Part shown: positions 7,844-57,015 of the stretch, one piece after another | Position numbering within the stretch: position 1 is the first letter of the stretch | Layout: each line of letters begins with the position of its first letter | Assembly: GCA_030390025.1 (NCBI GenBank) | Contig: CM059432.1 | Location: 31,622,001 to 31,686,000, forward strand | Source of the DNA: Squalus acanthias | Taxonomy: Eukaryota | Direction: 5' to 3' | DNA: 64,000 nucleotides | Made by a program: the position numbers and the translations under genes | The notes under the pieces: model-generated | What the model was told of the DNA's origin: nothing | Database searches by the model: none | Seen by the model: the letters and a program-made list of their open reading frames with translations, nothing else

Positions 7844-7870
7844 AATGTGTTTTGATGGTTAAAATATAAG

Positions 7871-8573
7871 GGCCTAAAAATTCGGTGCTTTGTGCTTCCC
7901 GTTAGCACCCTAAGAGGGCGCTAACGGGGCGCAAAGCAACTAGCGCCTGGGCGCAGCGCCGCCAACGCCTCCCGCGAAATTCAGCAGGTTAGTGGCGGCG
8001 GTAACTGTTAGCACCCCACCTCGCAGCGCTGTGCCGCCGGTAATGACATCATCGCCGTGCACAGCGCCCCACTCGCACCCCTGCCGTGATCTTCGGTAGC
8101 GCCCCCTGACTTATCACCGGACGCTATGGCGACGGGGTCAGGGGGGCCTACCTGCGGCCGGGGTGGCGCTAATTAAAGGGAAGGTGCTGGGCGGCCATTT
8201 TTGTTGCTGGCCGCCTGCCAGCACTTGCCCCCGTTGCCGACCCCGGCCTCCTCTGCAGCCCTCCGCCCCCCGCGGAGTGCCGGCTACGCTCTGTGTGCCC
8301 GGCACTTCTCTTGAGTGCCGGGCTCTTTTGCCGGCACTCCGATCCCTGGTGGCCCAGCTGGGCCCCAGGCCGCGCTGTGCTAGGCCCCTCCCCTTTAGGA
8401 AGGGGAGGAAGGCCTGCAGTACCGCGGCGCTGCGGCAAATAGCGCCACGATATTCACTTGCAGCGCCCCAAGAGGGAGGCGGGGCACTTCCAGTAGCACC
8501 CCACTTCCCTCGTGGGGCGCTACCAATGAATTTCGGCATTGGGTGGGCTAATCTTTTCGGGAGTTGCGCCCAA
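7871..8573 (+). mobile_element. GC-rich Harbinger-like MITE (same family as 45238-46006)
   Basis: Starts GGCCTAAAAATT and is the near reverse complement of 45238-46006 over most of its length. Right TIR not recognisable. Confidence 0.75.
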
Positions 8574-9197: not shown

Positions 9198-12100
9198 TAT
9201 AGGCTCTTGGGTGATGTACAAAAGGGCAGCTGGTGCCTGTGCAACTGTGCAATAGCATGGGAGAGGTGGGGGGGAAGAAAAGAGATGGGAAAGTTGAATT
9301 GGTTTGGAAAAATGTATATTTCTGAAAATATTTTATCTTCTGGTTGTTTAGCTGAAAGGAAACCATGCAGCACTAAGTATTTACAAAATGGTTCTGACAT
9401 CGGTACTGGTTCCTTATTTTTCCATAAGCAAAAATGTGTGCTGCACAGCACATGTCAGCACCATTTGTAAGAGGATAACACACACCAGTAGCAAGAGGTT
9501 GAGCTCTGAAGCTTACATGAGTTCAAATGCAAATTCAGCATGCAGTATGTACTATCTATAGGATGGACTGCAACAATTCACCAAGGTTACTCAATATCAC
9601 CTCCCAGCCCTGGTACCTCTAGCAGCAAGAAGGCAAAGAGCAGAAACTTCATGGGAACTCCATCACATCCAAGGTCCCCTCCGAGTCACACGCCATCCTG
9701 ACTTGGACATATATTGCTGTCATTGCTGAGTCAAATCCTGAAATTTCCAACCAAACATCGTCCTGGAGCACCATCACTACAAGGACTCCAGTAGTTCAAG
9801 AGGACCCACTACCATCGTATCAGGGCCACTAGGGATGGACACTAAATGCAGTCTTTCCAGCTTCACTCACATCCAAAGGTCAAATTTAAATAGAGTGAGA
9901 TAATAAGTTTGTGATTTGCCTTGCAGCAAGTTCCAGATCTGAGGTGGACCACTTAAGAGTTTCATTCAAATTTTTTTTTTTAAATTATCCTCCCTATTTT
10001 CTCCCCTCTCCTTCCCAAGGTGTATGATGAGGTTCAGCTCCACTGGTGCTGACTGCCCTTCAGTACCTCAACCAAATGTCATTTCAACATGTGAGCCAAA
10101 ATAGCAAGTATTGACAGGCTATTAGGCATCACAGTTTAGCTCCCCAATCCTGTCTTCACCTAACACTCAATCTTCTTTTTTCCTACTGGAGTCAGTGGAT
10201 GATTGTCTTTCTTCTTAGTCCAAGGTCATTGTATGCAACTGTAGCAAACCCATTGCTGCAGCTGAGATCAGCGAACTCAGCACAGAATCTGAATCAAGCC
10301 TGGCTGTTTCCTGGTGTGCACGGCAGACAGCGACTCCTACTGCAAAGTGTGCCCATGTACTTCAGGTAAGGACAGAATTGAGCTTTCTGCCATCCATCAT
10401 TACAGCTCAAACAATTGGATAGATATCAGAGGATGGCCAATATCCATGAAATCATGTTCAAGCAAGAGTCAGCATCTTCAGAAAGGGAGCAAATACACTT
10501 AACAGGTCTTCATCGACTGAACCATCAGAATGGGCCCCATTTAATTTTCTTTAAATTGATAGAACTTCAAATTTGGGTATGTGATCTTCAGAAGCTGGCA
10601 GTGGGGGGGGGGGGGCGGGGGAATCAAGATATTTAACAACCCTCTGAACACTGTACTAACAGATTTAGTTAGTAAATTGATGCATCCCTCCACTGGCACA
10701 GTTAGTAAATCTACTATCCAGTAAATGACTGATCCCGACAAAGCAGGGAAATCTAAGGTCCAAGCTCCAATCAGTGTTGAGTAATTTACATACAATTACA
10801 TGGAATCTTCAGCACAGAAACAGGCCATTTGGCTCAACTGGTCTATGCCAATGTTTATACGCCACACAAGTGTCCTCCCACTCTAATTCGTAAACAAGAT
10901 AGATGAGTTAACAGCACAAATAGAAATAAATGGGTGTGATCTGATAGTCATTACAGAGATGTGGTTGCAAGGTGACCAAGGCTGGGAACTGAATATTCAG
11001 GGGTTCTTGACATTTCGGACAGATAGGCAGAAAGGAAAAGGAGGTGGGGTAGCTCTGTTAATAAAGGATGAGATCAGTACAGTAGTGAGCAATGATCTTG
11101 GCTCAGAAGATCTAGATGTAGAATCAGTTTGGGTGGAGATACGAAATAGTAAAGGAAAGAAGTCACTTGTGGGAGTAGTCTTTAGGCCCCCTAACAGTAG
11201 CTACACTGTAGGACAGAGTATAAATCAAGAAATAATGGGGGCTTGTAAGAAAGGTACTGCAATAATCATGGGCGATTTTAATCTTCATATAGATTGGACA
11301 AATCAAATTGGCAAAGGTAGCCTTGAGGACGAGTTCATAGAGTGTATTCAGGATGGTTTCTTAGAACAATACATTGTGGAACCAACCTAAGAGAAGGCTA
11401 TTTTAGATCTGGTAATGTATAATGAGACAGGATTAATTAATGATCTCACTGTAAAGGATCCTCTAGGGAAGAGTGATCATAGCATGATAAACTGAATTTG
11501 AAATTCTGAGGGTGAGAAACTTGGGTCTGAAACTAGTGTCCTAAACTTAAATACAGGCAATTACAAAGGTATGAAGACAGAGTTGGCTAAAGGGGACTGG
11601 GAAAATAGATTAAAGGGTAAGACGGTAGATAAGCAGTGGCAGACATTTTAGGAGATATTTCATAACTCTCAACAAAGGTTTATTCCAGTGAGAAAGAAAG
11701 ACTCTAAGAGAAGGATGAACCATCTGTGGCTAACTAAGGAAGTTAAGGATGGCATCAAATTGAAAACAAAGGCATACAATGATACGAAGATTAGTGGTAG
11801 GCCAGAGGCTTGGGAAATTTTTAGAAACCAACAAAGGATGACTGAAAAAAAATAATAGAGGGAGAAGATAGATTATGAGAGTAAACTAGCAAAAAATATA
11901 AAAACAGACAGTAACAGCTTCTACAGGTATATAAAAAGGAAGAGAATACCTAAAGTAAACATTGGTCCCTTAGAGGATGAGACTGGGGAATTAATAATGG
12001 GAAACAGGGAAATGGCAGAGACGTTGAACAAAAATTTTGTATCGGTCTTCACGGTAGAAGACACTAAAAGCATCCCAATAATAATTGATAATCAAGGGGC

Positions 12101-13134
12101 TATAGGGAGGGAGGAACTTAAAACAATCACTATCACTAGTGAAAAAGTACTAGGCAAACTAATGGGACTAAAGGCTGACAAGTCCCCTGAACCTGATGGC
12201 CTGCATACTAGGGTCTTAAAAGAAGTGGCTGCAGAGATAGTGGATGCATTGGTTGTAATCTACCAAAATTCCCTGGATTCTGGAGAGGTCCCAGCGGATT
12301 GGAAAACCGCAAATGTAACTCCCCTATTCAAGAAAGGAGGGAGACAGAAAGTAGGAAACTAGAGGCCAGTTAGCCTAACATCTGTCATTTGGGAAAATGC
12401 TGGAAGTAATAACAGGACATTTAGAAAATCATAATACAATCAAGCAGAGTCAACATGGTTTTATGAAAGGGAAATCGTGTTTGAGAAATTTACTAGAGTT
12501 CTTTGAGGATGTAACGAGCAGGGTGGATAAAGGGGAACCAGTAGATGTAGTGTATTTGGATTTCCAGAAGGCATTCGATAAGGTGCCACATAAAAGGTTA
12601 CTGCACAAGATAAGAGCTCACGGGGTTGGGGGTAATATATTAGCATGGATAGAGGATTTGCTAACTAACAGGGATAAATGGTTCATTTTCAGGTTGGCAA
12701 ACTGTAACTAGTGGGGTGCCACGGGGATCAGTGCTGGGGCCTCAACTATGTACAATTTATATTAATGACTTGGATGAAGCGAGCAAGTGTACTGTAGCCA
12801 AATTTGTTGATGATACAAAGATAGGTGAGAAAGCAAGTTGTGAGGAAGACACAAAGGGCTGGATTTTGATACTGGGGCGGGCTGGGGTCGTGTAATCCAC
12901 ATTTTGTGTTAGCCACCTGTTTCTAAATCGATGTGGGAGAATGATGCCATTTTAACCTAATTGGCCAATTGAGTTTCAACGTGTGGGAACCCATGGCCAG
13001 TGAGTTTTTCCAGTCTGAAAGTCGCCTCCGATGACGTCATCATTGCTGCTGCATTTAAGGTCTGCAACAAGCCTTGCTTCTTCTGCAGACTGCCAAGCTT
13101 TTGCCCTTGCATGTTAGAGGCAACTGCAGGAAGA

Positions 13135-16100
13135 ATGGCCAGCCAGAGACCTAGGTCTGCACCCCGCTTTGATGACGTTGCCCTGCAGGCTTTAGTAGAG
13201 GGAGCAAGAGCAAACAGAGAGGTGCTCTTCCCTTCTTCAGGGAGGAGGAAGCCTCCCCAGCAAACCAAGACTGTGTGGATTGTAAAAGCTTTTATAGATA
13301 TGTGAAGAGAAAAAGATTAGTGAAATCAAGCATAGGTCCCTTGCAGTCAGAATCAGGGGAACTTATAATGGGGAACAAAGAAATGTCAGACCAATTAAAT
13401 ACATATTTTGGTTCTGTCTTCACAAAGGAGGACACAAATAACCTCCCAGAGATGTTGGGGAACATCGGGTCTGATGAAAGGGAGGAACTGAAAGAAATCA
13501 GTATTTGTAGGGAAATGGTGTTAGGAAAATTGAAGGGATTGAAGGCCGGTAAATCCCCAGGGCCTGATAATCTACATCCTAGGGTACTTAAGGAAGTGGC
13601 CCTAGAAATAGTAGATGCATTGCTGATCATCTTCCAACATTCGATGGAATCTGGAACAGTACCCATGGATTGGAGGGTAGCTAATGTTACCCCACTATTC
13701 AAAAAGGGTGGTAGAGAGAAAACGGGGAATTATAGACCGGTAAGCCTGACATCGGTAGTGGGGAAAATGCTAGAGTCCATTATAAAAGATGTAATAGCTG
13801 AGCACTTGAAAAACAGTGACAGAATCGGACAAAGTCATCATGGATTTACAAAAGGTAAATCATGTTTGACTAATCTACTGGATTTTTTTGAGGATGTAAC
13901 TGGTAAAATAGATAAGGGAGAACCAGTGGTTGTGGTGTATTTGGACTTCCAAACGGCTTTTGATAAGGTCCCGCATAAGAGATTAGTGTGTAAAGTTAAG
14001 GCACATGGGATTGGGGGCAAGGTATTGACTTGGATAGAGAACTGGTTGGCAGACAGAAAGCAAAGAGTTGCAATAAACGGGTCTTTTTCCGAGTGGCAGG
14101 CAGTGACTAGTGGGGTACCGCAGGGATCGGTCCTTGGACCCCAGCTATTCACAATATATATTAATGATCTCGACAAGGGAACTAGATGTAATATCTCCAA
14201 GTTTGCAGATGACACAAAACTGGGTGGGCGTGTGTGCTGCAAGGAGGATGCCGAGAAACTCCAGGATGATTTGGACAGGTTGGGTGATTGGGCAGAAGCG
14301 TGGCAGATGCAATATAACGTGGATAAATGCGAGGTTATCCACTTTGGTGGCAAAAACAGAAGGGCAGATTATTATCTGAATGGCAATAGATTGGGAGAAG
14401 GGGAAGTGCAACGAGACCTGGGTGTCCTTGTGCACCAGTCGCTGAAGGTAAGCATGCAGGTGCAGCAGGCGGTTAAGAAGGCAAATGGTATGTTGGCCTT
14501 CATAGCGAGAGGGTTTGAGTACAGGAACAAGGATGTCTTGCTGCAGTTGTACAGGGCCTTGGTGAGACCACACCTTGAGTACTGTGTGCAGTTTTGGTCG
14601 CCTTATCTGAGGAAGGATGTTCTTGCCATGGAAGGAGTTCAGCGAAGATTCACAAGGCTGTTACCTGGGCTGGCAGAAATGACATATGAAGAGAGATTGG
14701 GTCGATTGGGCTTATACTCGCTGGAGTTTAGAAGAATGAGAGGGGATCTCATTGAAACTTATAAAATTCTGACAGGACAGGACAAACTAGATGCAGGAAG
14801 GATGTTCCCGATGGTCGGGGAGTCCAGAACCAGGGGTCAGAGTCTAAGGATAAGGGGTAAGCCATTTAGGACAGAAATTAGGAGGAATTTCTTCACCCAG
14901 AGTGGTGAACCTGTGGAATTCTCTGCCACAGAAGGCAGTAGAGGCCAATTCATTAAATAGATTCAAGAAGGAGTTGGATATATTTCTTAAGGCTAAAGGG
15001 ATCAAGGGATATGGGGAGAAAGCAGAGACAGGGTACTGAATTTGGATGATCAGCCATGATCTCATTGAATGGCGGAGCAGGCTAGAGGGGCCGAATGGCC
15101 TACTCCTGCTCCTATCTTCTATGATTCTATGATTCTATGGATCCAGGTGGCAGAGGAGGTCAACTCTTTGTCAATAACCCGCAGAACCTGGCTTCAGTGC
15201 AGGAAGAGGCTTCATGACCTTCTGCGCACTGGAAAAGTGAGTATGAATTTTCCATCACCCTCAATCTGATCCCCATTGCCTCTCCTCACCAGCACTCAGC
15301 TTTAGCAATCTCTTCCTCCACATCCCACTTGACACTGACATCCATGCACCCTTACCCATTCCCTCTCTCTCTATGGTTTCATTCACCTAACTATTCGACT
15401 ATGCAGCCCTCACACTCCCTATCACTGTGATGCAATTACAACTTACAACACACAGGGAGGGCCCTTGGTCTTGCCACCTCACTCCATCTTTGTCTCCTTC
15501 TAAGCATCTATGCTATAGATTCTCTACACTCACTCCTTCATTCTCACTCAAACTCCACTTGTCTCCCTCATTGCAGGAAAAGAGCGGTCACAATAAGAGG
15601 GAAAGAGCGAGGACAGGAGGAGAGCCACCCTCAGTAGCCCAGCTCACCACCTGGGAGGAGGCAGTCCTGGAGATCGTGGGAGTAGAGGAAGATTCCCAAG
15701 TGGGGGACGGACAGACAGGCGCATCACAGCAAGCTGCTGACAGAATAGTTTTCCATCTCTCTCAATGACATTGCATGAGTCGCTGATAATGATTCTGAAG
15801 CTCTAACAGATGGACTTATGATCATCTGCAATATGCAATGTGCATGTAACCTTGGCCTCACATCTCTGACTCTTTCCTTTACTCCCCCCTAGGACCATCG
15901 CAAGCACCCGCCCCACTATCCAGGAGGAAGAGCATGAGCCTCAAGACTCCTCAGAGGAAGCTGCAACCTCTGAGGGCGCAGCGTCAGCAGGAATCAGCGC
16001 ACCCAGCACCAGCGCAGACACTCACACCTCGGAGGGAACATCGCGAGATAGAGTAGTGTTGTCACCTGGTATATCACAGCTCACAAGTGAGCATCAGCAG

Positions 16101-16958
16101 ATGGTGGAGACAGGGACAGCAGTGGAGAGTCCTAGTCGGAGGGCGCAGGACTCTCCCAGCTCGGCTCAGCTGCATGTCGACCCTCTGCCTCTGGATCCAT
16201 CCATAAGATCAGCGGTGCTGGAACTCCAGGAACAGATGCAGGAGTCTCTGACAGGTTTTGTCTCCAGGGTCGCTGTGAGTGTGGAGCGAATGGAGGAGTC
16301 CATTGCGAACATGACCAGAGCCTTTGTGGAGTCATTGGCGCATGAACGCATCACCACGGAAAGGATGGCAACCTCCGTGGAAAGGATGACTACAGTAGAG
16401 GAGAGGATGGCTACGGCCATGGAGGAGCTAAGTCGCCAGAGTGTAGAAAACATGGTCATTGTTCAGAATAGACTGGCATCTCTTGAGGAGCGATGGTCAG
16501 CTACTGAGCATAGAAACCAGACCTTCATGGAAGTCCTCTGGAGTAGGACTTCCAGTGCAGAAATGGGTCCTCATGGCCCCCCTGAAGTGCAGCAAGGTGC
16601 TGTTAAGCCACTTGCTAGCTCTGAAGTGGGGCTGACCCATGAGAGGGATGTTGGTGGCAGACAACAAGGAAGTGGGGGCTCCTCTCCAAGCGCTCAAACA
16701 ACCATGCCACTGCAAAGCCCTCGGTCAGAGCCCCACCAGAGTCCTCACCCAACTGAGATGGGCGTCTCATCCCCTGCACAGCCGCAGGAGCAGCAGACTG
16801 TTGGCGAGCCCTCACAGGTTCGCAACCCCAGAGGACGCCTGCCAAAGGTGTCGAGACAGGAGCAGCAAGAAAGTGAGCAAGGGACCTCCACATCTGCTGA
16901 AGCCACAGGGGAAGCACCACGTAGGAGCACGCGTAAGAGAAAGATAGTGCACAAATAG
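13135..16958 (+). pseudogene. Harbinger Myb/SANT-like DNA-binding gene, 3 exons (13135-13280 + 15143-15236; 15577-~15736; 15893-16958), disrupted
   Basis: MASQRPRSAPRFDDVALQALVEG...KTVW|IQVAEEVNS...RTWLQCRKRLHDL is a trihelix/Myb pattern. Donor gtgagt at 15237, acceptors ttgcag (15576) and cccctag (15892). Exon 2 reads EKSGHNKRERARTGG. Exon 1 is broken by a CR1, the exon-2 donor appears mutated (ct), and there is a possible frameshift near 15915. Confidence 0.85.
13281..15137 (+). mobile_element. young 5'-truncated CR1 LINE with long open RT frame (13275-14960)
   Basis: 561-aa ORF with [23 protein letters not shown]. Ends in a (ctatgatt)n tail. TGGAT repeated at both junctions (13276-13280; 15138-15142). 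Confidence 0.96.
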
Positions 16959-17214
16959 TCACAAGGGTAGTCACTTGGGGGACTTTTGATGTTTTATGTT
17001 AAAAAGCCATCAGATGATTACTGTAAATAAAAAATCTGATGGCTACTGCTGTAGTTGTGGCATGTGTCATTTCGCGAATGGGACTTCCACATTGAGGGCT
17101 TAGGATTACTTGCAATTGCCAGTATGGTGTTCAAATTGCTAGGAATCGCTGGTTCTTGGCCATTGTCGATGCTCAGGTAAGACGCTACGAGGCAAAAGTG
17201 CTTGATTGGCTAGG

Positions 17215-18443
17215 CTAAGCAAATCTGGCCAAGATGAGTGCGTTCCTTGCATCCCGGGCAGCAATGTTCTCGCGTACTGCTGTCGCTGGTTGATGGGCCT
17301 CTGCAAGATGTTCATTTTCGACCTCCTCCTCCTCCTCCTCATCGGAGGAGGATATGTGATGAGCCACTTGGTCCTCAGGAATCTGCAAGCCACGACACTG
17401 TGCCATGTTGTGAAGTGCACAGCAAACCACGACGATTCTGGAGACCCTGGCTGCTGAGTATTGCAGGGCTCCACCTGATCTATCCAGGCATCTGAAGCGC
17501 ATCTTCAGAAAACCAATGGTTTGCTCGATTATGGCTCTGGTGGACTTGTGGTTGGAGTTGTAGCTCTCCTCAGCTTCGTTGGATGGGCTCCTCAACGGCG
17601 TCATTAGCCACGACTTCAGGGGATAGCCCTTGTCTCCAAGTAGCCATCCGTTAAGTTGGTCTGGCGGACTGAATAGCGGAGGCACACTAGACTGGCGCAG
17701 TATGAAGGAGTCATGGCAACAGCCAGGGTACTTGGCACAAACATGCAAAATTTCCTTCTTGTGGTCACACACCAGCTGAACGTTAAGGGAATAGAAGCCC
17801 TTGCGGTTGACAAAAATACCTGGATTGCGATGGGGTGCCTTAAGGGCCACATGTGTGCAGTCAACGACGCCCTGCACCCTTGGAAAGCCTGCCAGATTAG
17901 CTAATCTAACCGCACGCGCCGTGACACTTGCTTGATCCTTGGTGAAATGGATGTGAGTGTGCGCGATGGCAAAGAGGGCATCGGTTACCTGCGTGATGCA
18001 GGTGTGTGCGGCCGCTTGGGAGATGCCGCTGATGTCTGCTGCTGATCCCTGGAATGACCCTGAGGCAAAAAAGTTGAGTGCAGTGGTGACTTTGATGGCC
18101 ACTGGTAAGGGTTGTCCACCTGGTCCTCTGGGCTCCAGGTCTTGTTGCAGCATTGCGCAGATGTCACCCACTACCTCTCGCGAAAGTCGGAGCCGCCTTT
18201 GGCATTGCTGCTCAGACATGTTGAGGTAGCTGTAGACCCTGTTTGGGGGTATCTCCTGCGCCGACGGGCTTCCATGCGCTGGCCCCTTCTGGCCTGTGCA
18301 GCTTCAGGTGGGTGAGCAGCAGCTTGGCGCTCCTGTTGTTGTTGCTGCTGTTGGTGCTGCTGTTGTTCATGGTTCTGCTGGTGCCGCGGCTGGTCTTCGA
18401 CCTCATCTGATGTCCAGAAGGGATGGAAATAAATGGCTCCCAT
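17215..18443 (-). CDS. Harbinger (HARBI1-like, DDE_Tnp_4) transposase; 334-aa core open at 17215-18219, Q-rich N-terminus separated by a frameshift near 18240
   Basis: HTH-like region ([11 protein letters not shown]...ISQAAAH), catalytic motifs [34 protein letters not shown]. Upstream ORF 18171-18443 supplies MGAIYF...RRRRRYP. Confidence 0.93.
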
Positions 18444-19919
18444 GCTTCTGGTATATGCCTCAGTTGAGGAAGTGCTCAGTCAAGGTGGCGAGAGGGGTTT
18501 CCCAGGAAGTCACACTGGAGATGGGTATCAGGCTCCAAACTTCCACAGCTGTGGTTATGCCTTCTAAAAGTTCCCCCAGACCTGAGACAACAAAGTCCTG
18601 CCACCTGCAAATGATGGCTGATCAAATCTCCTATTTAATGGTTGAGCTGCAGCTGACAGTCAGCAATCAATTGTGCTACCGCCAGGTTTCACCATCGTGT
18701 TTCAGAACAGGCGTGCTTCACGTGGGAAAAGGGTTAAAATCACAATGGCCTATCAAAATGGCATTATAGAGGCAATTTAGTGCTTGTTAAAGGCCTTAAC
18801 GGCCTATCCCGCCTCTTGGAGGCGGGACCAGTAGACACGATTTAATGAATATTGCGTGGAGGCGGGATCGGGCCTGCCCGCCAGTTTTTGTAATTTTAAC
18901 CACCCACACGCCTCCAATCCCGCCTCAACGGCCCGATGAAAATCCAGCCCAAAGAGTCTGCACAGGGATATAGATAGGTTAAGTGAGTGGGCAACTATTT
19001 GGCAGATGGAGTATAATGTGGGAAAATGTGAGGTTAGCCACTTTGGTAGGAAAAATAAAAAAGCAAATTATTATTGAAATAGAGAGACTACAAAATGCTG
19101 CGGTACAGAGGGACCTGGGGGTCCTCATACATGAAACACAAAAAGTTAGCATGCAGGTACAGCAAGTAATTAGGAAGGCAAATGGAATGTTGACCCTTAT
19201 TGCAAGGGGGATGGAGTATAAAAGTAGGGAAGGCTTGCTACAACTGTACAGGGCGCTGGTGAGACCACACCTGGAGTACTGTGTGCAGTTTTGGTCTCCT
19301 TATTTAAGGAGGGATATACTTGCATTGGAGGCAGTTCAGAGAAGGTTCACTAGGTTGATTCTTGAGATGAAGGGGTTGTCTTTTGAAGAAAGGTTGAGCA
19401 GGTTGGGACTATACTCATTGGAGTTTAGAAGAATGAGAGGTGATCTTATTGAAACATATAAGATTCTGAGGGGGCTTGACAGGGTAGATGCAGGGAGGAT
19501 GTTTCCCCTCGTGGGGGAATCTAGAACTAGGGGGCATAGTTTCAAAATAAGGGGTCGCCCATTTAAAACGGAGATGAGGAGGAATTTCTTCTCTCACAGG
19601 GTCGTGAATCTTTGGAATTCTCTACCCCCAGAGAGCGGTGGAGGCAGAGTCATTGAATATATTCAAGGCGGAGATAGACAGATATTTGAGCTACAGAGGA
19701 GTCAAGGGTTATGGGGAGCGGGCGGGAAAGTGGAATTGAGGCCAAGATCAGATCAGTCATGATCTTATTGAATGGCAGAGCAGACTCGAGGGGCCAAATA
19801 GCCTACTCCTGCTCCTATTTCTTATGTTCTTATGTTCAATGGAACTGAATATCAGGCGGCTGATCCAATACCGCCTGTTTTGTGCCAACACCCGAGATGA
19901 ATTTCTAGCCCACAGAATC

Positions 19920-22802: not shown

Positions 22803-24400
22803 GGGGGGAATTTTTCGGGGGTCAGCGGGCGCGTTTGGTGGCGGGTCGGGCTGTCACACTAGTTTCCCAGATGTTGGGTCTGTCATCGCTGAACAGACCC
22901 GACACCAAGCGGCGGGGGAGGGAATTTAGATGATTAAGAGCTTGTTAACAGGCACCTAAAAAATATTTTAAGCTCACCTTTAGATTTTAGGAGTTCGCCC
23001 ACGGCTCCCCCGCTGCTCGGGGATCACTTCAGGTAAGCAGGTCAGGAGTTGTGTCAGCATGGGATGATTCCTTAACTTGACAGCTGCAAATGTGCTGTTA
23101 AAGCTCCCATTTCATAGCTGTTCACTTTCCAAGCTCGGAAGCTGTTGCTTACTGCATTTGGAAGACAGATTGAGCTTTATGCAGCTTGCAAGTGTTTGGA
23201 GCAAACTCTCTATCCAGTGTCACCTCATTTGAACGACCTCTCTCACCACTGACAGATCGCTTCTGTCATCTCTACTTCACCTGCCATCTATTCCATTAGC
23301 ATCGGTGCCCTTGAAACTATCTCACCTTTGTCCTCAGAATCCCACCACGATCAGTCCCAACACCAGCAGCACCAGGCACACCAGCAGCACCAACAACAAC
23401 ACCAATCTTCTCCCCAATCAACTGATGCTGCACAGGACACAGGGCATCAACACCCGACCATAATGCTGCCCAAGATGCAGGGATGGCCTCACCATAGCCA
23501 GATTTACTTCACTTGACGCTGTACACCCTGGCTGCCACATGATGCGCCAGGTTGGCACCACCCCACACCAACACCATAAAGCATCCCTACAATGCCCAAA
23601 CCATTCCTTTCACACTCATCGCCATTGCGGGAGGTACCATTGTGACTCACCGTCCATGGCAACTCACTAAACCACTTCCAAAAGGTGCACACAAATCTAT
23701 CCAAGAACACAAAGTGTTGAAAATAAAGATTTCAATGTTTGACACCACATTAACAGAAACTTCACAAGAACATTGGATAAAACACCCAAGTGCCTATCCT
23801 TGTGTGTTGTTAGTTGGTGTGATTGGACTAGGATGAGTGTGAGTGTGAGGGGTGGCTAGTGAGATGGGGATGTGATAATGTAGATTGAGAGGGATGGGTG
23901 GAGATGCAAGGTAAGTTGGTGTGAGTAAGGACGTGCAGGAGTAGGGTAGAGAAGGTAGAGTGATGGGGATGTGATGTGAGGCACAGCAGGATGAGGTTGA
24001 GTGTGGCTTTGTACTAACGCTTTGTGATCTGCTGAGATCATTGAAAAGTTTGTGGCACTGCACCCAGATCCTGCTGACCACATCCCTGCTTGTGTCCTCC
24101 TGTGCAATGTACAACCAGGCTGTGTTGATCTCCTAGGGAGGACTTCTCTGCCCATGGGAAGGGAAGAGGACCTCCCTGTGTGCTGTGACTCCCTCCATAA
24201 GCATATGGAGGAAGTCATGGGAGAGCCTGGGTGCAGGCCTGCACCTCTGTGCAGTGCTTGTCAGTGTTTGCAGCACCTCAATGCTGTGGAACACTGACAG
24301 CAGAACTGTCACAATCAATTTGCGCATGGTCCCTTTAAGGAAACTGGCTGATGATTCATCATCAAGTGACATCATCAGACCCGTTTCCTTCAATTCATTG
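22803..24400. mobile_element. internally deleted, degenerate Harbinger element (divergent family)
   Basis: Starts GGGGGGAATTTT. Q/H-rich transposase N-terminus on + (23328-23516). Myb exon 1 remnant on - (PAPRLSHDFLHMLMEGVTAHREVLFP; RIWVQCHKLFNDL). Same convergent layout as 12856-18950. Confidence 0.75.
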
Positions 24401-37399: not shown

Positions 37400-40075
37400 G
37401 GGAGCTGATTGACCAGTTGAAACTGGTTTTGTCTGTCACTACAAGCTCCAGCTTGAGCTGAGACTGCAAGACAGAGAGGTGGGAACAGTGACACTAAAGC
37501 TATCTAAAATAGGAAGTTGGTAAGAGTAGGAATTAGGTGAAGAGGAGGAAGGAAGTGCTAAGTAATTTAAACAGAGGGACAACAGCAAAAGAGAAAGAGG
37601 GAGAGAGAGAGGGAGGCACTCTAAGTAAAGAGAACTTTAAGTAAATAACAGTTAATTCCAGTGAAGTGGATGGGCAGCTGAGACCCATTGCCTGCCATTC
37701 CTGTGCCATGAGGGAACTCCAGAACGCTTCTTGCGTCCTGGATAACCACGTGTGCAGGAATTGCCTCCTGCTGCTCAAGCTCAGGGTTTCTGAACTTGAG
37801 GAGCGGCTGGTGTCACTGCAGGGTATATGGGAGGCTGAATGTTTCCCGAATCGCATGTTCCAGGTGGTGGTTACACCGCAGCCACAGAGAGTTTAGGAGG
37901 ACAGTAAGTGAATGGCCATCTGGCAGGGTAGGAAGAAGAGGCAGGCAGTGCAGGAATCCTCTGGGTGTGTGGCACTCACAAACCAGTTTTCAGTGCTTAA
38001 TAGCTGTGAGGGTGACGGCACCTCATGGGAGTACAGTCTAGAGCAAATCCATGGCACTGTGGGGTGAAGGACTGCACAGGGAGGCACAATAAAGTGCAGA
38101 AATGCAGTTGTCATAGGGATTCAATAGTTAGGGGAACAGATAAGCATTTCTCCAACTGCCGACATGACTCTCGCATGGTGTGTTGCCTCCCTGGTGCCAG
38201 GGTAAAGGATGTTATGGAACAGATGCAGTACATTCTGCAAGGGAAAGGGTAACAACTCAAAGTCGTAGTCCATGATGGAATTAATGACATAGGAACGAAA
38301 AGGGTTGAGGTCCTGCAGTCAGAGTTTCAGGAGTTAGGGAGGGAGTTTAAAGAGCAGAACCTCAAAGGTGGTCATTTCTGGATTATTCCCAGTGCCACGT
38401 GCCACAGTATAGAAACAGTAAAATAAAGCAGGTTAATGTGTGGCTGGAGAAATGCAGGAGGGAGGGGTTCAGATTCCTGGGGCATTGGGACCAGTTAAGG
38501 GACAGGAGGGACCTGTACAAGGTGGATGTGTTGCACCTCAACAGGGCTGGACCAATGTCCTTGCGAGGAGGTTAACTAGTACTGTGGGGGAGGGTTTAAA
38601 CTCATTTGGCAGCTAGAGCGGCACTAGGATGAAGCATTAGAAAAGAGAAACAAGGTGCACATAGGACTGGGAGAGACAAATAGGGCTGGATTTTGTCTTG
38701 GGGTCGGGTTGGGGTCGTGTAATCCGCACTTCGTGTTTCCCCCCCGACTCCAGATTAATGTGGATGCCTGATGCAATTTTCACTTAATTGGGCAATTGAG
38801 TTGGAGCATGTGGGAACACATGAACTAATTAGTGTTTTCAGTCTGAAAGTCACCTCTGATGATGTCATCATTGCTGACTGCCTAGTCTCAGAGACTGTTG
38901 GTGAGAGAGGACCTGCCTGGCTTTTGATGTGAGTGGACCTGGATATATATGTGAGAGTGTGAGAGAGAGAGAGAGAGAGTGTCAGAGAGAGAGAGAGAAT
39001 GAACTTTTTGGCCAAGCAAGTCCTCCCAGGCAGTCTCTGAAGACATTCAATGCAGCAGCATCAGAGGCGACTTTCAGACCTAATACTACTACTACTACCT
39101 TCATCACATCTCCGTTGTAATAGTGGACCTGCAGCCGATAGTCAGCTATCCACTTGTGCTCCCGCCAGGTTTCACTGGAGTGTTTCACACCAGGCGTGCT
39201 TCACGTCAGAAGAGGGTTAAACTAGCTACAGCGTTTCAAAATGGTATTACAGAGCCAATTTAGAGCTTGTTAAGGGCTTTAATGGCCTCTCCCGCCTCTT
39301 GAAGGCGGGACGGAGTCGGGAACCCCACGACTGATTCTGTCAAAATTGCATGGAGGCGGGATGGAGTCGGGATGGGGTCGGAAACCCCGACCCCGCAAAT
39401 TTAACCCCCCACACGCCTCCAAACCCGACTCCATGGGTCATTCAAAATCCAGCCCATAGCATTAGAATAAAGAGTAGTTCAGAAATAGGAGGGATCAAAC
39501 AGGGGGGAAATTTGAGGTAGACTAGGATGGGATTGGAGAGCATGTGCGTAAATGCACAGAGTGTGGTAAATAAAGTTGGTCAGCTGCAGGCACAAATTGC
39601 TGCATGGTGGCAAGAATGGAGACCTGGCTCAAACAAGGGGAGGATTGGTTATTTAATATTCCTGGCTACAAAGTATTCAGGAAAGATAGGGAAGGAAAAA
39701 AAGAGGGTGGGGTGGCAGTATTGATCAAAGATACAGTAATGGAAAGGGATTATGTACTTGAGGGTTCAAAGACAGAATCCATTTGGTTAGAAATAAGGAA
39801 CAATAGAGGAGCTATTATGCTGCCGGGTATATACTACTAGGCCACTAAATAGTAGGAAGGAGATAGAGGAGAAAAATTTGCAGGCAAATTTCAGAAAGAT
39901 GCAAGAACTGTAGAGTAGTGATAATGGGGGACTTCAATTATCCTAATATAGACTAGGAAAATAACAGTGTAAGGGCAAAGAGGGGGAGGAATTCCTGAAA
40001 TGTGTACAAGAGAACTTTCTTGATCAATATGTATCCAGCCCAACGAGGAAGGAAGCAGTGTTGGATCTGGTTCTT
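37400..40075 (+). mobile_element. CR1 5' part: ORF1 (Cys finger and SGNH esterase) plus start of ORF2 endonuclease, decayed
   Basis: CHSC..HVCRNC, DSIVRGTD...VCCLPGARVKDV, CVNAQSVVNK, ETWL, MGDFN. Split by the MITE at 38683-39455. Confidence 0.88.
38683..39455 (+). mobile_element. non-autonomous MITE of the 12856-18950 Harbinger family
   Basis: Perfect TIR GGGCTGGATTTT, TSD ATA, both subtermini homologous to the autonomous copy. Confidence 0.93.
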
Positions 40076-41853: not shown

Positions 41854-42288
41854 GGGCTGGATTTTCATAGACCCGTGGAGGCGGGTTTGGAGGCGTGTGG
41901 GGGGTTAAAATTGCGAAAAGTGGCGGGCGGACCCGATCCTGCCTCCATTCCGCCTCCACGCAATTTTGATGAAATCGTGTGCGGTGGTCTCGTCTCCGTC
42001 CCGCCTCCAAGAGGCGGGAGAGGCCATTAAAGCCCTTAACAAGCCCTAAATTGGCTCTGTAATGCCATTTTGAAACGTTTAAGCTAGTTTAACCCTTTTC
42101 CCACGTGAAGCACGCCTGATCTGAAACACGCCAGTGAAACCTGGTGGGAGCACAAGTGGATAGCTGACTATCGGAGATGTGATGAAGGTAGTAGTATTAG
42201 GTCTGAAAGTCGCCTCTGAGGCTGCTGCATTGAATGTCTTCAGAGACTGCCTGGCCTTTGCTGTGAGAGGACCTGGATGCAAAAAAAA

Positions 42289-42327
<39 letters not shown>

Positions 42328-42588
42328 CTGCTGCTCATTTTGCATCCAGATCCTCTCACAGCAAAGGCCAGGCAGTGTCTGACCTGCAATGCAGCATCAA
42401 TGATGACATCATCAGAGGCGACTTTCAGACTGAAACCACTAATTGGTTCATGGGTTCCCACATGCTGGAACTCAATTGCCCAATTAGGTGAAAATTGCAT
42501 CAATCTCCCACATCAAATTGCAGGCAGGTGGATAACACGAAATGCGGATGACACGACCCCAACCCGCCCCAGTATCAAAATCCAGCCC
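41854..42588 (-). mobile_element. non-autonomous MITE of the 12856-18950 Harbinger family (inverted)
   Basis: Perfect TIR GGGCTGGATTTT, TSD TCT (41851-41853; 42589-42591). Right end is the reverse complement of 12856-13060. Confidence 0.94.
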
Positions 42589-45237: not shown

Positions 45238-46006
45238 GAGGGAAAAATTGGGTCGCGCCCCCTCTGGGGCGCTAACTTTGCCGGGACACTACTTTTAGTG
45301 CCCTGAAAAAATTAGCAGCCCCGCGCCCGAAATTCACCGGTAGCGCCCCAAGAGGGAAGCGGGGTGCTACTGGAAGCGTCCCGCCTCCCTCTTGGGATGC
45401 TGCTAGTGAATATCGCGGCACTACGTGCCGCAACGCCACGCACTGCGGCACGTCGCGTCACGGTACTGCAGGCCTTCCTCCCCTTCTTAAAGGAGAGGGG
45501 CCTAACGCTGCGCGACCCGGGCCCAGATGGGCCACCAGGGAACGGAGTGCCGGCAAAAGAGCCCGGCACTCAAGAGAAGTGCCGGGCTCATGGAGCGCAG
45601 CCGGTACTCCACGGGGAGGCTTCAGAGGAGGCCGGGGACGGCAGAGAGGGCAGGTGCTGGCAGACAGCCAGCAACAAAAATGGCCGCCCAGCACCTCCCC
45701 TTTAATTTGCGCCGCCCCAGCCACAGGTAGGCCCCCCTGACCCCGTCAGACATAGCGTCTGGCGGTATGTCAGGGGTGCTACCGAAGATCGCAGCCAGGG
45801 CGCGAGCGGGGCGCTGCGCACGGCGATGACGTCATTGTCGGTGGTGCAGCACCATGGGGCGCTAACGGTTACCGCCGCCGCTAACCTCCCGCTGAATTTC
45901 GCGGGAGGTATTGGCGGCGCCGCGCCCAGGTGCTAGTTGCTTTGCGCCCCATTAGCGCCCTCTTAGGGTGCTAACGGGAGGTGCAAAGCAACCGAATTTT
46001 TAGGCC
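45238..46006 (-). mobile_element. GC-rich Harbinger-like MITE
   Basis: Termini GAGGGAAAAATT / GGCCTAAAAATT (rc). TSD ATT (45235-45237; 46007-46009). Inverted relative of 7871-8573. Confidence 0.8.
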
Positions 46007-46448
46007 ATTGGCTATAAACTACTTTTTTTCTTTTTAATTTTTTTATAAGTTTTTTTGTGCTCAATAAAGTGAAAGATGTTGGAATGGAACGCTTTTAGGC
46101 CACCTAGTGTCACCACCAAGCACTCCCAGGTCAGTTATAGCACAGTTAGATGCAGAGCAACACCATTGTGCCCCAACACCATGCCCAGCACAAACCCCAG
46201 AGAAACAACCAGTATCAACCATTGACCTATTTGAGTAGCAATTCCAGTTAGTGCCCTATGAGCAGCAGCTTTGTGTTATCGGCCTTTGACAACTATGAAG
46301 CCTCCCTCGAGTCGAGCTACAGGTCAGAGAATTATGGCTGCAGTGTTGTAGCCCTATCTCGAACCTATGCTCCCATCCAGTGATACTTCTCTGCTGTGAG
46401 ATCTGGCTAGTGGAATCTCCCTTTGATTGCGACTGCACTTTGATTGTA

Positions 46449-52800: not shown

Positions 52801-54748
52801 CAGGAGGACCACCAGGACCAGAATTAGGACTACCACCACCACCCATTTCTCAAATGGAACCCATTTTATGTTTCCAAATTCTACTAAAGAATTCTGTAAC
52901 ACAAACAAAAGATATGAACTTATTTTCCATATTTACAGATTAATCTTAACCACTGGTTTTCTGTTTCGAAGAGGATACCTTCTTTCTTGAACAGAACTTT
53001 CAGATCTTGTTGTAGGACTTTGACTCATTCTTGGCTGAGCCTGCAGAGAATTTTTCTCCAAGGGCTGACCTTGATCTACATTTGGACTCTCTACACTATT
53101 AGACTGTTTGTCTGCCTGATTCGGGCTCATGCTTAAATTCTGACTTTGTCTTGAACTTGTTTCTGATACGTCTGATGTAGGATTTGCTACTGGTACTCTA
53201 CTTGTAACAAGACTATCTGATTCATCAGAATAAATTGAAACATCCCAGTTTTCAACTCCTTCCACATCTGTAGGCAAGATATGGTCAATGTGAACAAACC
53301 TAACATTTCCATGATCAAACATCTTGATCAAATATGTGCGAGGACCACATATCTTCACTACTCTTCCTGGTAACCACTTTAACCACTTATGGTGATGATT
53401 CTTCACTCTATCATTCTGGTTCAACTTCACACTTCTCTCTAACTCTACCTTTATCATGACTCTCTGCCTCGATTGTTTCTCTTCTACGGATTGTGCCAAG
53501 TTTGGCTTTAACAAAGAGAACCTGGTTCAAGGCTGTCGTTTGAGAAACAACTCTGCTGGTTTTCTACCAGTAGTGGTATGAGGAGTATTCCAATAGGTAA
53601 TCAGAAAATTTGCCAGTTTGTGGTCCAACGACAACTGACATTTCTTTGGATTTGGATCCAACATTTGTTTGATGAGGGCATGTTTGACAATTTGTACTGT
53701 GCGCTCTGCTGCACCATTTGAAGCAGGGTGGTACGGTGGAACTTTGGTATGTTTCACACCATTTCTGCTCATGAACTGTGTGAGCTCTTCTGAACAAAAT
53801 TGCGGCCCATTATCAGACACAATTTCTTCTGGGAGGCTGATGAAGAAAACAATCTTCGCAAATTGTCTAATGTTTTGCTTGTTGTTATTATCCGCATCAG
53901 AAACTCCTCTACCCACTTCGAGTGACTATCTATCACTATGAACAATTGCTGTCCTTCTAGCTCCGCAAAATCTACATGAAACCTTTGCCACACTCTGGGA
54001 GGCCATTTCCATAGCTGTAATGGTGGTTTCTTGCTCACCGATTGACATGTTGTACACTGACTGACTATGTACTCTATCTCTTTATCTAAACCTAGCCACC
54101 ATAAGTAACTGCGTGCAAAGCTCTTGGTCAAGCACATTCCCAGGTGCTGGTCATGAAGATCTCCTAACAATTTAGACCTGAACCTATTTGGGATAACCAC
54201 TTTTACTCCCCACATGATACGATCTTTATCCACTGACAATTCATTCCTACGAACAAAGTATGGATCTATATCTTCCTCTGATACCTGGTTTGGCCTTCCA
54301 TTTGCTATGTAATCATACACCTTTGACATAATTGGGTCACGTTTGGTTGCCCTACCAATCTCTTCAGCTGTGACTGGCAGCTCATCAATGTATGAGAAAT
54401 AGAACACTTCTTCCTTGTTGCAAGTAGCTTGTGATGGGGATGGCAACCTGGACATAGCATCAACATTACTGTGATCAGCTGATCATCTGTACTCAATGTC
54501 ATACATATACACTGACAAAATCAAAGCCCATCTCTGCACTTGGGCTGCAGAGGATTGCTGTCAGGGGCTTATGGTCAGTAACTATGGTAAACTTATGACC
54601 AAACAAGTATATGTAAAACTTCTTGACCCCAAAAATCAATGACAAAGCTTTCCTTTCGATCTGAGCATAATCCCACTTACTGGCACTGAGAGTGCGTGAA
54701 GCAAAAGCAGTCTCCCCTCCCCACTATCTTAAATGAGTGATCACTGTC

Positions 54749-55163
54749 AGGGGCGTGTCAGGTTGTTTTCGTGTCAGAACCCCGACTCCGATGTGAAATG
54801 GGAAAAAAGTGCGATTTTTCCCTAATTGGGTACTTGATTTCCAGAGTGTGGAAACCCCTGGGCCAATGAGTCTTTTCACACAGAAAGTCGCCTCCGATGA
54901 CATCATCAATGCTGCTGGATTTAAGGCCTGCAAGCAGCCTTGCTTCTTCTGGAGAATTTAAACTTTATGCCCATTGTTGTGATCGCTTCATTCAGCAACT
55001 ATGTCCAGCAGTCGGCCAAAGTGTGCTCCAAGGTTCGATGAGGCCTCCCTCCAAGCTCTGGTGGAGGGAGCAAGATCAAATAAGGAGGTGCTCTTCCCTT
55101 CCTCAGGGAGGAAAAAGCCTCCCCAGCAGACTAAAGCTGTGTGGATGCAAATGGCCCAGGAGG
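54749..55163 (+). mobile_element. fragment of a related Harbinger: left subterminus and Myb exon 1
   Basis: gaaagtcgcctccgatgacatcatc as at 13017-13041. Translates MSSSRPKCAPRFDEASLQALVEGARSNKEVLFPSSGRKKPPQQTKAVW from about 55001. Confidence 0.85.
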
Positions 55164-57015
55164 ATAGTACCTAGCCTGTGCTTGGAACATCTCCTCCTTA
55201 AAGATCACCCATTGTTCCATTACAGTTTTTCCTGTCAGTCTTTGGTTCCATTTTACCCTGGCTAGATCCTTTCACATCCCATTGAAGTTAGCCCTATTCC
55301 AGTTTAGAAGTTCCACTCTACATTGTTCCTTGCTCCTCTCCATTGCTATTCTAAATCTTATGATACCCAAGTGTTCTCCTACAGACACTTGGTCGACCTG
55401 GCCCACCTCATTCCCCAGCACCAGATCCAGAAATGCCTCCTTCCTAGTTGGGCCAAGAACATACTGGTCAAGGAAATTCTCCTGAACACATTTCAGAAAT
55501 TCCTCCTCCTCCTTTCCCTTTACCCTAGCATTATCCCAATCGATATTTGGGTAATTGAAAGTCCCCCAATATCACCACTCTATATCTCTTGCATATCGCT
55601 GCGATTTCCCTGCAGATTTGCTCCTCTACCTCCCTCTCACTATTTGGAGGCCTATAGAATACCCCCAATAGCGTGATCATACCCTTTTTGCTCCTCAACT
55701 CTAACCAAATGGATTGTGTCCTTGTCCCCTCAAGAACATCCTTCCTTTCCAACACTACAATGTCTTCCTTAATCAGCACTGCCACCCCACCTCCCTTTTT
55801 TCCTTCCCTATCTTTTCTGAACACCTTGTACCCTTGAAAATTAAGTGCCCAGTCCTCACCGTTTTTAAGCCACGTTTCTGTTATTGCCACAACATATTGC
55901 CACACGGCTAATTGTGCTTGTAGCTCACCAACCTTATTCACCACACTTTGTGCGTTTACGTACATGCATTCTAAACTCATTTTTGAATTTTTCGTAGTCT
56001 TTCTTAGTCTGCTCCTATCTAATATGGTACTACTTCCTCCTCTAGTACTACTTTCTTCTCTAGTACTATCCAACACACTCACTCTTTTATGCACCTTATT
56101 CCTCTTTTCTACTCCTATATGCTGGTGCCCATCCCCCTGCCAAGCTAGTTTGAACCCTCCCCAACAGCACTAGCAAACCTCTCCGCGAGAATATTGGTCC
56201 CGACTCTGTTGAGGTGTAACACGTCCGGCTTGTACAGGTCCCACCTTTCCCAGAAACAGTCCCAATGCCTCAGGAATCTAAAGCCCTCCCTCCCATCTCT
56301 CCAGCCACGCATTCATCTGTTCTATCCTCCTATTCCTGTACTCACTAGCACGTGGCACTGGGAGTAATCTGGAGATTACTACCTTTGAGGTCCTGCTTTT
56401 TAATCTCTTTCCTAGCTCCCTATAGTCTGCCTGCAGGGCCTGATCCCTCTTTCTACCTATGTCGTTGGGACCGATATGGACAACAACCTCTGGTTGTACA
56501 CCCTCCCCCCTCAGAGTGTCCTGCAGCCGCTCAGTGACATCCTTGACCCTGGCACCAGGGAGGCAACATACCATCCTGGAGTCACGCCTGCGTCCACAGA
56601 AACGCCTATCTGTTCCCCTAACCAATGAATCCCCTGTCACTATTGCTCTTCTACTCTTTTTCCTCCCCCCCTGGGCAGCTGAGCCACTTGTTGTGCCATG
56701 GCCTTGGCTCTGCCTGCTCTCCCCAGAGGAACCATCACCCCCACCAGATGCACTCTGGGGATTCCTGCCCTACCTGTCTGGTCCTCCTTCTCTGTCTGGT
56801 GGTCACATTCCCTCTCTGCCTGCACATTCTGAGGCTGCGGGGTGACCACTTCTAGAAACGTGCTTTCCAAGTATTTCTCAGCCTCGCGGTGGCACTGTAG
56901 TGTCTCTAGCTGCCACTCAAGCTCCAAAACCCAGAGCTCGAGTTGCTGCAGTTGGCGACACTTCCTGCACACGTGGTCATCCAGGAGGCATCCAGGATTT
57001 CCCACATGGCACACA
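55164..57015 (-). mobile_element. CR1 5' part (ORF1 Cys finger and esterase, ORF2 endonuclease) inside Gypsy pol
   Basis: HVCRKC, GDSLVRGTDRRFC...VVVHIGPND, CMYVNAQS...ITETWL...LGDF. Confidence 0.92.

Follow-up and report, generated by a model that had tools for sequence, protein, structure and literature searches.

Does a PIF/Harbinger transposon that has kept its full length in a shark genome still stand close to activity, or is it a relic? The question is raised by a stretch of 64,000 nucleotides of Squalus acanthias (GenBank assembly GCA_030390025.1, contig CM059432.1, positions 31,622,001 to 31,686,000 of the forward strand), which is here called the window and whose first letter is position 1. 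An earlier note, made from the sequence alone, had described a complete two-component element at 12856-18950 that was only a few lesions away from an active one. The identity which it proposed is upheld by terminal inverted repeats (TIRs), an AAA target-site duplication (TSD), a DDE transposase gene on the minus strand, and a Myb/SANT gene of three exons that converges on it from the plus strand. The locus is very probably a once-autonomous, now dead two-gene Harbinger-type transposon (PHIS, Nuwa/Harbinger3_DR-like branch) of a shark-type genome, belonging to a family that was amplified long ago. This copy is long dead although it is full-length.

Ends of the element and its CR1 host

The Harbinger-type element measures 6,095 bp, or 4,233 bp without a CR1 long interspersed nuclear element (LINE) that lies inside it. 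Its borders and surroundings are as follows.

10886..12855, plus strand: host CR1 LINE, left part (RVT_1, E 1.9e-10; self-BLAST); it resumes at 18951 and runs to about 19835
12853..12855: left TSD, AAA, in host CR1 DNA; target AGACAC-AAA-GAGTCT
12856..12867, plus strand: left TIR, GGGCTGGATTTT
18651..18938: right subterminal region with many GGAGGCGGG/CCCGCCTCC motifs, candidate Myb binding sites
18939..18950, minus strand: right TIR, inverted copy of GGGCTGGATTTT
18951..18953: right TSD, AAA
38683..39455, plus strand: miniature inverted-repeat transposable element (MITE) of 773 bp with the same 12-bp TIRs and TSD ATA, inserted in another CR1
41854..42588, minus strand: MITE of 735 bp with the same TIRs and TSD AGA in element orientation

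The two TIRs match at 12/12 positions and are mismatched at base 13. When the element is deleted together with one AAA, the reverse-transcriptase frame of the host CR1 is regained (..CEEDTKSLHRDIDRL..), and deletion of 0 or 2 bases instead leaves no collinear host CR1 reading. The empty site reconstructed in this way can be aligned with two further CR1 copies of the window, and no gap falls at the insertion point. Since the empty site restores the CR1 frame and aligns gapless, the 3-bp TSD is genuine and the AGACAC beside it belongs to the host, in agreement with the perfect repeats and the 3-bp TSD that the earlier note had recorded. The note had not remarked that AAA departs from the canonical TWA.

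The MITEs lie in opposite orientations and are 73-86% identical to the ends of the element and about 80% identical to each other. The CR1 around the first of them (38683-39455) has an uninterrupted paralogue at about 55417-57013. The motif GGCGGG occurs 5 times in the last 300 bp of the element versus once in 3,508 bp of its interior, and it is kept in both MITEs; the GGCGGG-rich right subterminal region is, from its sequence, inferred to be a candidate Myb binding region. As a separate observation, a contig of sequencing run X1 that matches 18939-19073 with 12 differences in 134 positions could mark another junction between TIR and CR1 or result from forcing an empty-site alignment, and it was not used.

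Transposase and Myb/SANT genes

The coding features of the element and the LINE that interrupts one of them are listed below.

13135..13280, plus strand: Myb/SANT exon 1, 5' part (ATG 13135)
13281..15142, plus strand: CR1 LINE, 5'-truncated, within Myb exon 1 (RVT_1, E 6e-33)
15143..15236, plus strand: Myb exon 1, 3' part (PF13873, E 3.8e-05; GT donor at 15237)
15577..15736, plus strand: Myb exon 2; the donor behind it, at 15737, is CT, a putatively broken GT
15893..16958, plus strand: Myb exon 3 (stop 16956-16958), with one base lost from the C run 15911-15914
17026..17031, plus strand: AATAAA, candidate poly(A) signal of the Myb gene
17215..18443, minus strand: DDE transposase, one exon, about 409 codons (ATG 18443, stop 17215-17217)

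The transposase matches the Pfam family DDE_Tnp_4 with E 3.7e-37. Its catalytic motifs are intact, as had been claimed: D195, D271, and E307 are all kept (codons 17860-62, 17632-34, and 17524-26, respectively), together with the HD aspartate D245. A homologue search yielded 415 proteins at E<=0.001; 120 of them were listed, the first 51 of which all come from sharks or rays, and the best among the matches listed is a Pristiophorus japonicus protein (P0001) with 63% identity. In a quick tree of the window protein and 55 of the 120 listed homologues (56 rows), which holds no labelled reference Harbinger or HARBI1 and is used loosely, the window transposase pairs with P0001 (SH-like approximate likelihood-ratio support 96) within a 36-row clade made up almost wholly of cartilaginous-fish proteins. 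Metagenome contigs gave two distant loci at 22-23% identity to the transposase and 0 matches to the left-end pattern, and a sequence search of solved structures with the transposase returned no match. A poly-Q-rich stretch, a short coding tandem repeat, is present at the transposase N-terminus (18325-18384).

The Myb/SANT gene is broken in its first exon by the inner CR1, which carries a reverse-transcriptase domain, a ATTCTATG-type tail, and TGGAT at both ends as microhomology or duplication, and which has itself lost 2 bases behind 14898. The interruption had been noticed earlier, and it holds: excision of 13281-15142 restores the exon-1 frame, and two exon-1 paralogues in the window (24025-24252 and 55001-55170) continue without a break across the CR1 point. 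The fragments to which they belong served as empty-site controls for the inner CR1. These are truncated left-arm/Myb exon-1 fragments of related Harbinger subfamilies at 54767-55170 (plus strand, 77%) and 24025-24258 (minus strand, 52% amino acid identity to exon 1).

Exon 1 shares 40% identity over 113 residues with the Myb part of protein P0038, scoring 202 where 500 shuffles gave 48 at most, and its 3' piece reaches 24 bits against Myb_DNA-bind_5, for which the cut-off is 21.7. A homologue search with the 48-residue exon-1 piece found nothing among 57 candidates, and one with residues 1-140 of P0121 returned 4 proteins, all from Heptranchias. The complete 487-residue three-exon model, in which X marks the break, matches two full-length Heptranchias perlo Myb proteins from end to end, XP_067827223.1 and XP_067830712.1, the two matches being 39% (E 8e-79) and 31% (E 3e-54) and both proteins bearing Myb_DNA-bind_5. 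The junction of exons 2 and 3 agrees with the ..A-GPS.. of the homologues, and none of 62 frameshift-free GT/GC splice alternatives reaches the 1232 of the frameshift model, the best of them scoring 1207. The exon 3 product has an acidic/Ser-rich and coiled-coil-like tail and a basic C-terminus; a 21-bp heptad-like tandem repeat lies within this exon at 16354-16423. The AATAAA at 17026-17031 is the sole such signal, on both strands, between the stops of the two genes.

Related copies, lesions and age

Sequences of the family are widespread in sequencing runs. The stretch 15143-18950 is represented, with 0.24-0.70 of its words, in 20 runs, which come from 8 studies and seven coded organisms; no listed run exceeds 0.70, so none stems from the individual of the window. 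Four of the 20 (X1, X8, X16, and X17) were compared by contig at >=90% likeness, depth sums not being taken as copy number. X16 and X17 are treated as RNA by guess; none of the 20 runs is on record as RNA. In X1, up to 124 distinct contigs cover a single interior position, and deletion joints near 17267-18279 are found in all four runs, the deletion derivatives being common to organisms A, D, and F. These two observations indicate a many-copy family with non-autonomous derivatives, and the element should therefore be rebuilt from a consensus and not from this window. The interior losses, either of ~1.0 kb (17265-18279, all four runs) or of ~2.06 kb (16245-18309, X1 only), have the appearance of non-autonomous deletion subfamilies.

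The same contigs bear on the lesions that had been proposed. Loose contig ends occur before 13281, the CR1 insertion point, in all four runs. The transposase frameshift suspected near 18240 is confirmed: behind 18244, contigs that account for 85,545/114,456 of the depth in X1 have one more G in the run 18245-18249; an extra G or T is present in this run of G in all four datasets. The second frameshift, considered possible near 15915, is likewise confirmed: three of the four runs have an extra C behind 15910, at 22.8/22.8 depth in X16 and as a minority in two DNA runs (296/5,218 and 2,699/40,090). As for the mutated donor at 15737, the present CT is read directly, whereas its former GT state rests solely on protein homology and does not appear among the 40 variant rows listed of 493.

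The description "only a few lesions" proved too lenient. A 12-bp in-frame loss behind 18229, which the earlier note overlooked, is a fifth structural lesion of the copy; the four residues concerned are present in 18/20 aligned homologues, and one X17 contig has the 12 bases, translated as RHRV. Among short contigs, those with such a 12-base insertion would probably be lost to the 90% filter. Missense changes have also accumulated at conserved residues, the transposase differing at six positions from the residue kept by at least 16 of 20 homologues. Residue 242, for instance, is C here and S in 20/20 homologues. A variant letter at >=20% in some run is found at 493 of the 6,601 bases compared, CR1 parts included, and among the 40 rows listed the majority contig letters restore C242->S, F312->L, R180->G, and L71->F in Myb helix 3.

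Both 1-base losses fall within homopolymers (G5 and C4) and the extra base is found in other contigs, so that the two frameshifts might be regarded as assembly errors in genes that are more intact than they appear. We consider this improbable: the CR1 insertion, the CT donor, the 12-bp loss, and the missense changes are not explicable as homopolymer errors. Because these other lesions cannot have arisen in that way, the copy is dead in either case.

That the copy is young, four lesions short of activity, in a family recently or still active, is also unlikely. The intact DDE residues and perfect TIRs speak for such a view, as do the stop-free runs of 342 transposase codons and about 347 exon-3 codons and the presence of element sequence in the RNA-labelled runs. 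Against it stand the fifth lesion and the six conserved-residue mismatches, the decay of the inner CR1 itself, the deletion derivatives in organisms A, D, and F, and the 3.5-8.8% differences to the listed contigs. The statement that the family was "active fairly recently" is overstated for this copy. In the epaulette shark, 7e-10 mutations per generation have been reported (95% confidence interval 1.4-14.1e-10) in the available part of PMC10587355; given that sharks mutate this slowly and that the divergence amounts to several percent, the copy is old. Taken at face value, 3.5% would equal tens of millions of generations, with a rate from one species and contigs from other organisms. On this sequence divergence the copy is simply termed old, and no finer age is claimed; younger copies may exist elsewhere.

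The difference to related contigs, about 3.5-9% overall, is unevenly distributed. The listed X16 and X17 contigs differ from this copy at 63/718 positions left of the inner CR1 and at 80/2,269 right of it (Fisher p 1e-7), which makes the divergence of the left arm roughly 2.5-fold higher, and depth is lower than in most interior bins over 12821-13262 in X1 and lower over 13042-13262 in X8. The copy might accordingly be a mosaic, with an arm left of the CR1 (12856-13280) derived from another subfamily than 15143-18950. This reading is possible but doubtful: the left-arm contigs overlap, are only four records, and were chosen by length; a single TSD and a single host CR1 are found at both ends; and a 5' arm that varies within the family would give the same picture.

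A domesticated host gene pair, like HARBI1/NAIF1, would be a further explanation, in favor of which it can be said that the database relatives are named "putative nuclease HARBI1" and that some near-orthologous pairs among them look domesticated. For this copy, domestication is refuted by the lesions and the TSD and can be given practically no credence; the TIRs, the site inside a LINE, and the many copies point in the same direction. Indeed, the single copy, the absence of TIR and TSD, and the intact open reading frames that mark HARBI1/NAIF1/MSANTD are not what is found here. As an observation apart from this locus, orthologue-like short-branch groups span distant sharks and rays (P0003/P0004, P0005/P0008, P0012/P0016, P0023/P0030/P0071, P0033/P0034, and P0024/P0026); several of these Harbinger-derived groups have altered catalytic residues, and repeated domestication in cartilaginous fish is a possibility.

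Several points weigh against the preferred reading of an old, once-autonomous two-gene element. A frameshift-free model with a GC donor at 15729 scores 1204 vs 1232 against the two homologues; as it scores nearly as well, the details of intron 2 are not settled. No intron was found among the 15 joints listed of 687 in the run contigs, and contigs from the RNA-labelled runs pass through the introns unspliced. The age estimate blends the copy's own decay with subfamily and species differences. Finally, the TSDs AAA, ATA, and AGA fit no TSD class given in the accessible part of PMC4482050.

With the dead two-gene element retained as the best explanation, its history can be outlined. Harbinger elements use a two-protein mechanism (PMC2836001 and PMC9179366, in the parts available). 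By analogy with Harbinger3_DR, the Myb/SANT protein would bind the ends, probably at the GGAGGCGGG-rich subterminal motifs, and would import the DDE transposase into the nucleus and place it at the TIRs; this enzyme would then cut the element out and insert it with a 3-base stagger at a preferred extended target. This copy, as read from the sequence, entered the reverse-transcriptase region of a CR1 at AGACAC-AAA-GAGTCT with duplication of AAA. Afterwards a CR1 was inserted into exon 1 of its Myb gene, single bases were lost at two places and 12 bases at a third, a donor was probably broken, and point changes built up to several percent. The family presumably grew to many copies and gave rise to MITEs and internal-deletion derivatives long ago.

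Elsewhere, the window consists mostly of nested CR1/L2-like LINE fragments and other repeats (self-BLAST). At 52936-54482 on the minus strand, two open frames of 197 and 237 residues resemble, by eye, a decayed pol of a long terminal repeat (LTR) retrotransposon. An inverted pair of GC-rich repeats of about 700 bp, 82% identical and with internal inverted similarity, lies at 7868-8561 and 45302-46009 and probably represents another MITE family.

Target sites and known Harbinger systems

The insertion sites of the element and the two MITEs, written from the left end, are AGACAC-AAA-GAGTCT (element), AGACAA-ATA-GCATTA, and AGACAC-AGA-GGCATC (MITEs). The three insertions are independent, because the flanks beyond the target are unrelated. 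Invariant columns number 8/15, and 1 in 200,000 random triplets is as good, with n=3 and a post hoc comparison. Extended targets characterize the superfamily, with 9 bp in plants and 15 bp in vertebrates according to the part of PMC2836001 available, and an extended preference of 9-15 bp is seen in these three sites (n=3).

The core of the target is slightly unusual with regard to the classes described in the accessible part of PMC4482050. A TWA duplication, which characterizes strict PIF/Harbinger, is found at 0/3 sites, also when these are read as TTT, TAT, and TCT, and the CWG of NuwaI likewise at 0/3. Compared with the C|TNA|G of NuwaII, the sites read C|AAA|G, A|ATA|G, and C|AGA|G, so that the flanks fit at 2/3 and the first TSD base is A at 3/3; the core also differs from the ANT class of that paper. 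The pattern AGACAM-ANA-G is a lead only, since three sites cannot tell ANA from a looser WNW. It is put forward tentatively, and with less than even confidence, that sharks possess a very abundant, uncurated Harbinger clade which duplicates ANA (TNT on the other strand) within a polar AGACAM-ANA-G target, the Myb-side arm being strict and the other loose. If so, PHIS would gain a further TSD class, and comparison with Harbinger3_DR could reveal which protein sets the core and which the flanks. Should the ANA core and the one-sided target hold genome-wide, the family would offer a second sequence-specific vertebrate Harbinger for studies of target choice.

Work on sharks, in the passages available, has been concerned with abundance. 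Harbinger and Tourist types outnumber the other DNA transposons of the grey reef shark (PMC12498223), and PIF-Harbinger has been reported in the whale shark (PMC8455134); the passages of both papers give totals by class and describe neither the structure of a family nor TIRs or target sites. A 2022 teleost survey recorded no Harbinger in the elephant shark and called for more species (PMC9179366, available in part). Among literature titles, with thin coverage of subscription papers and Repbase Reports, none pointed to a structural account of a shark Harbinger family or to an ANA TSD. The shark and ray proteins named "putative nuclease HARBI1" and the Heptranchias Myb proteins belong to the same protein clades as the products of the element, but they are gene predictions and not curated transposon families. 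As the full-length matches reach at most 63% and 39%, none of the annotated proteins found represents this very family. Many of the shark gene calls "putative nuclease HARBI1" and "myb-related" may, as these results suggest, be transposon copies.

The kind of element is textbook, and revival of a vertebrate Harbinger from a consensus has already been accomplished; what is gained here is a complete model of the structure, covering TIR, both genes, introns, and MITEs, for a Harbinger family of cartilaginous fish. As far as the available parts of PMC2836001 and PMC3016246 describe it, the reconstructed zebrafish Harbinger3_DR has a DDE transposase, a Myb-like partner, a 3-bp TSD, and an extended target, as here. 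In its target AAACACCWGGTCTTT (AAACAC-CWG-GTCTTT; PMC3016246), the left half is identical at 5/6 positions to the AGACAC of the present element. Its TSD core is CWG in contrast to ANA at 3/3 sites here, the two systems being likened by description and not by sequence alignment, and, unlike in Harbinger3_DR, the right target half is poorly conserved, with only the G at +1 invariant.

The Nuwa groups, as presented in the accessible part of PMC4482050, are close in organization. They carry two open reading frames, DDE and Myb/SANT, and average about 4.5-4.7 kb versus 4.2 kb here; the TIRs of NuwaI start with GGG and measure 12-61 bp, and those of the present element start with GGG and measure 12 bp. 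By a hand count on Fig. S3 of that paper, taken without TWA-group rows, the transposase core is identical at 45/92 positions to NuwaI-2_DRer and at 44/92 to NuwaII-4_XTro (about 48-49%), and the HD-to-GD spacing of 23 residues is the same in both. The C|nnn|G flanks at 2/3 sites are a NuwaII trait, and no cartilaginous fish is among the hosts of NuwaI and NuwaII named in the available text. The element thus falls within the broad PIF/Harbinger (PHIS) definition, while its TSD departs from that of each named subgroup.

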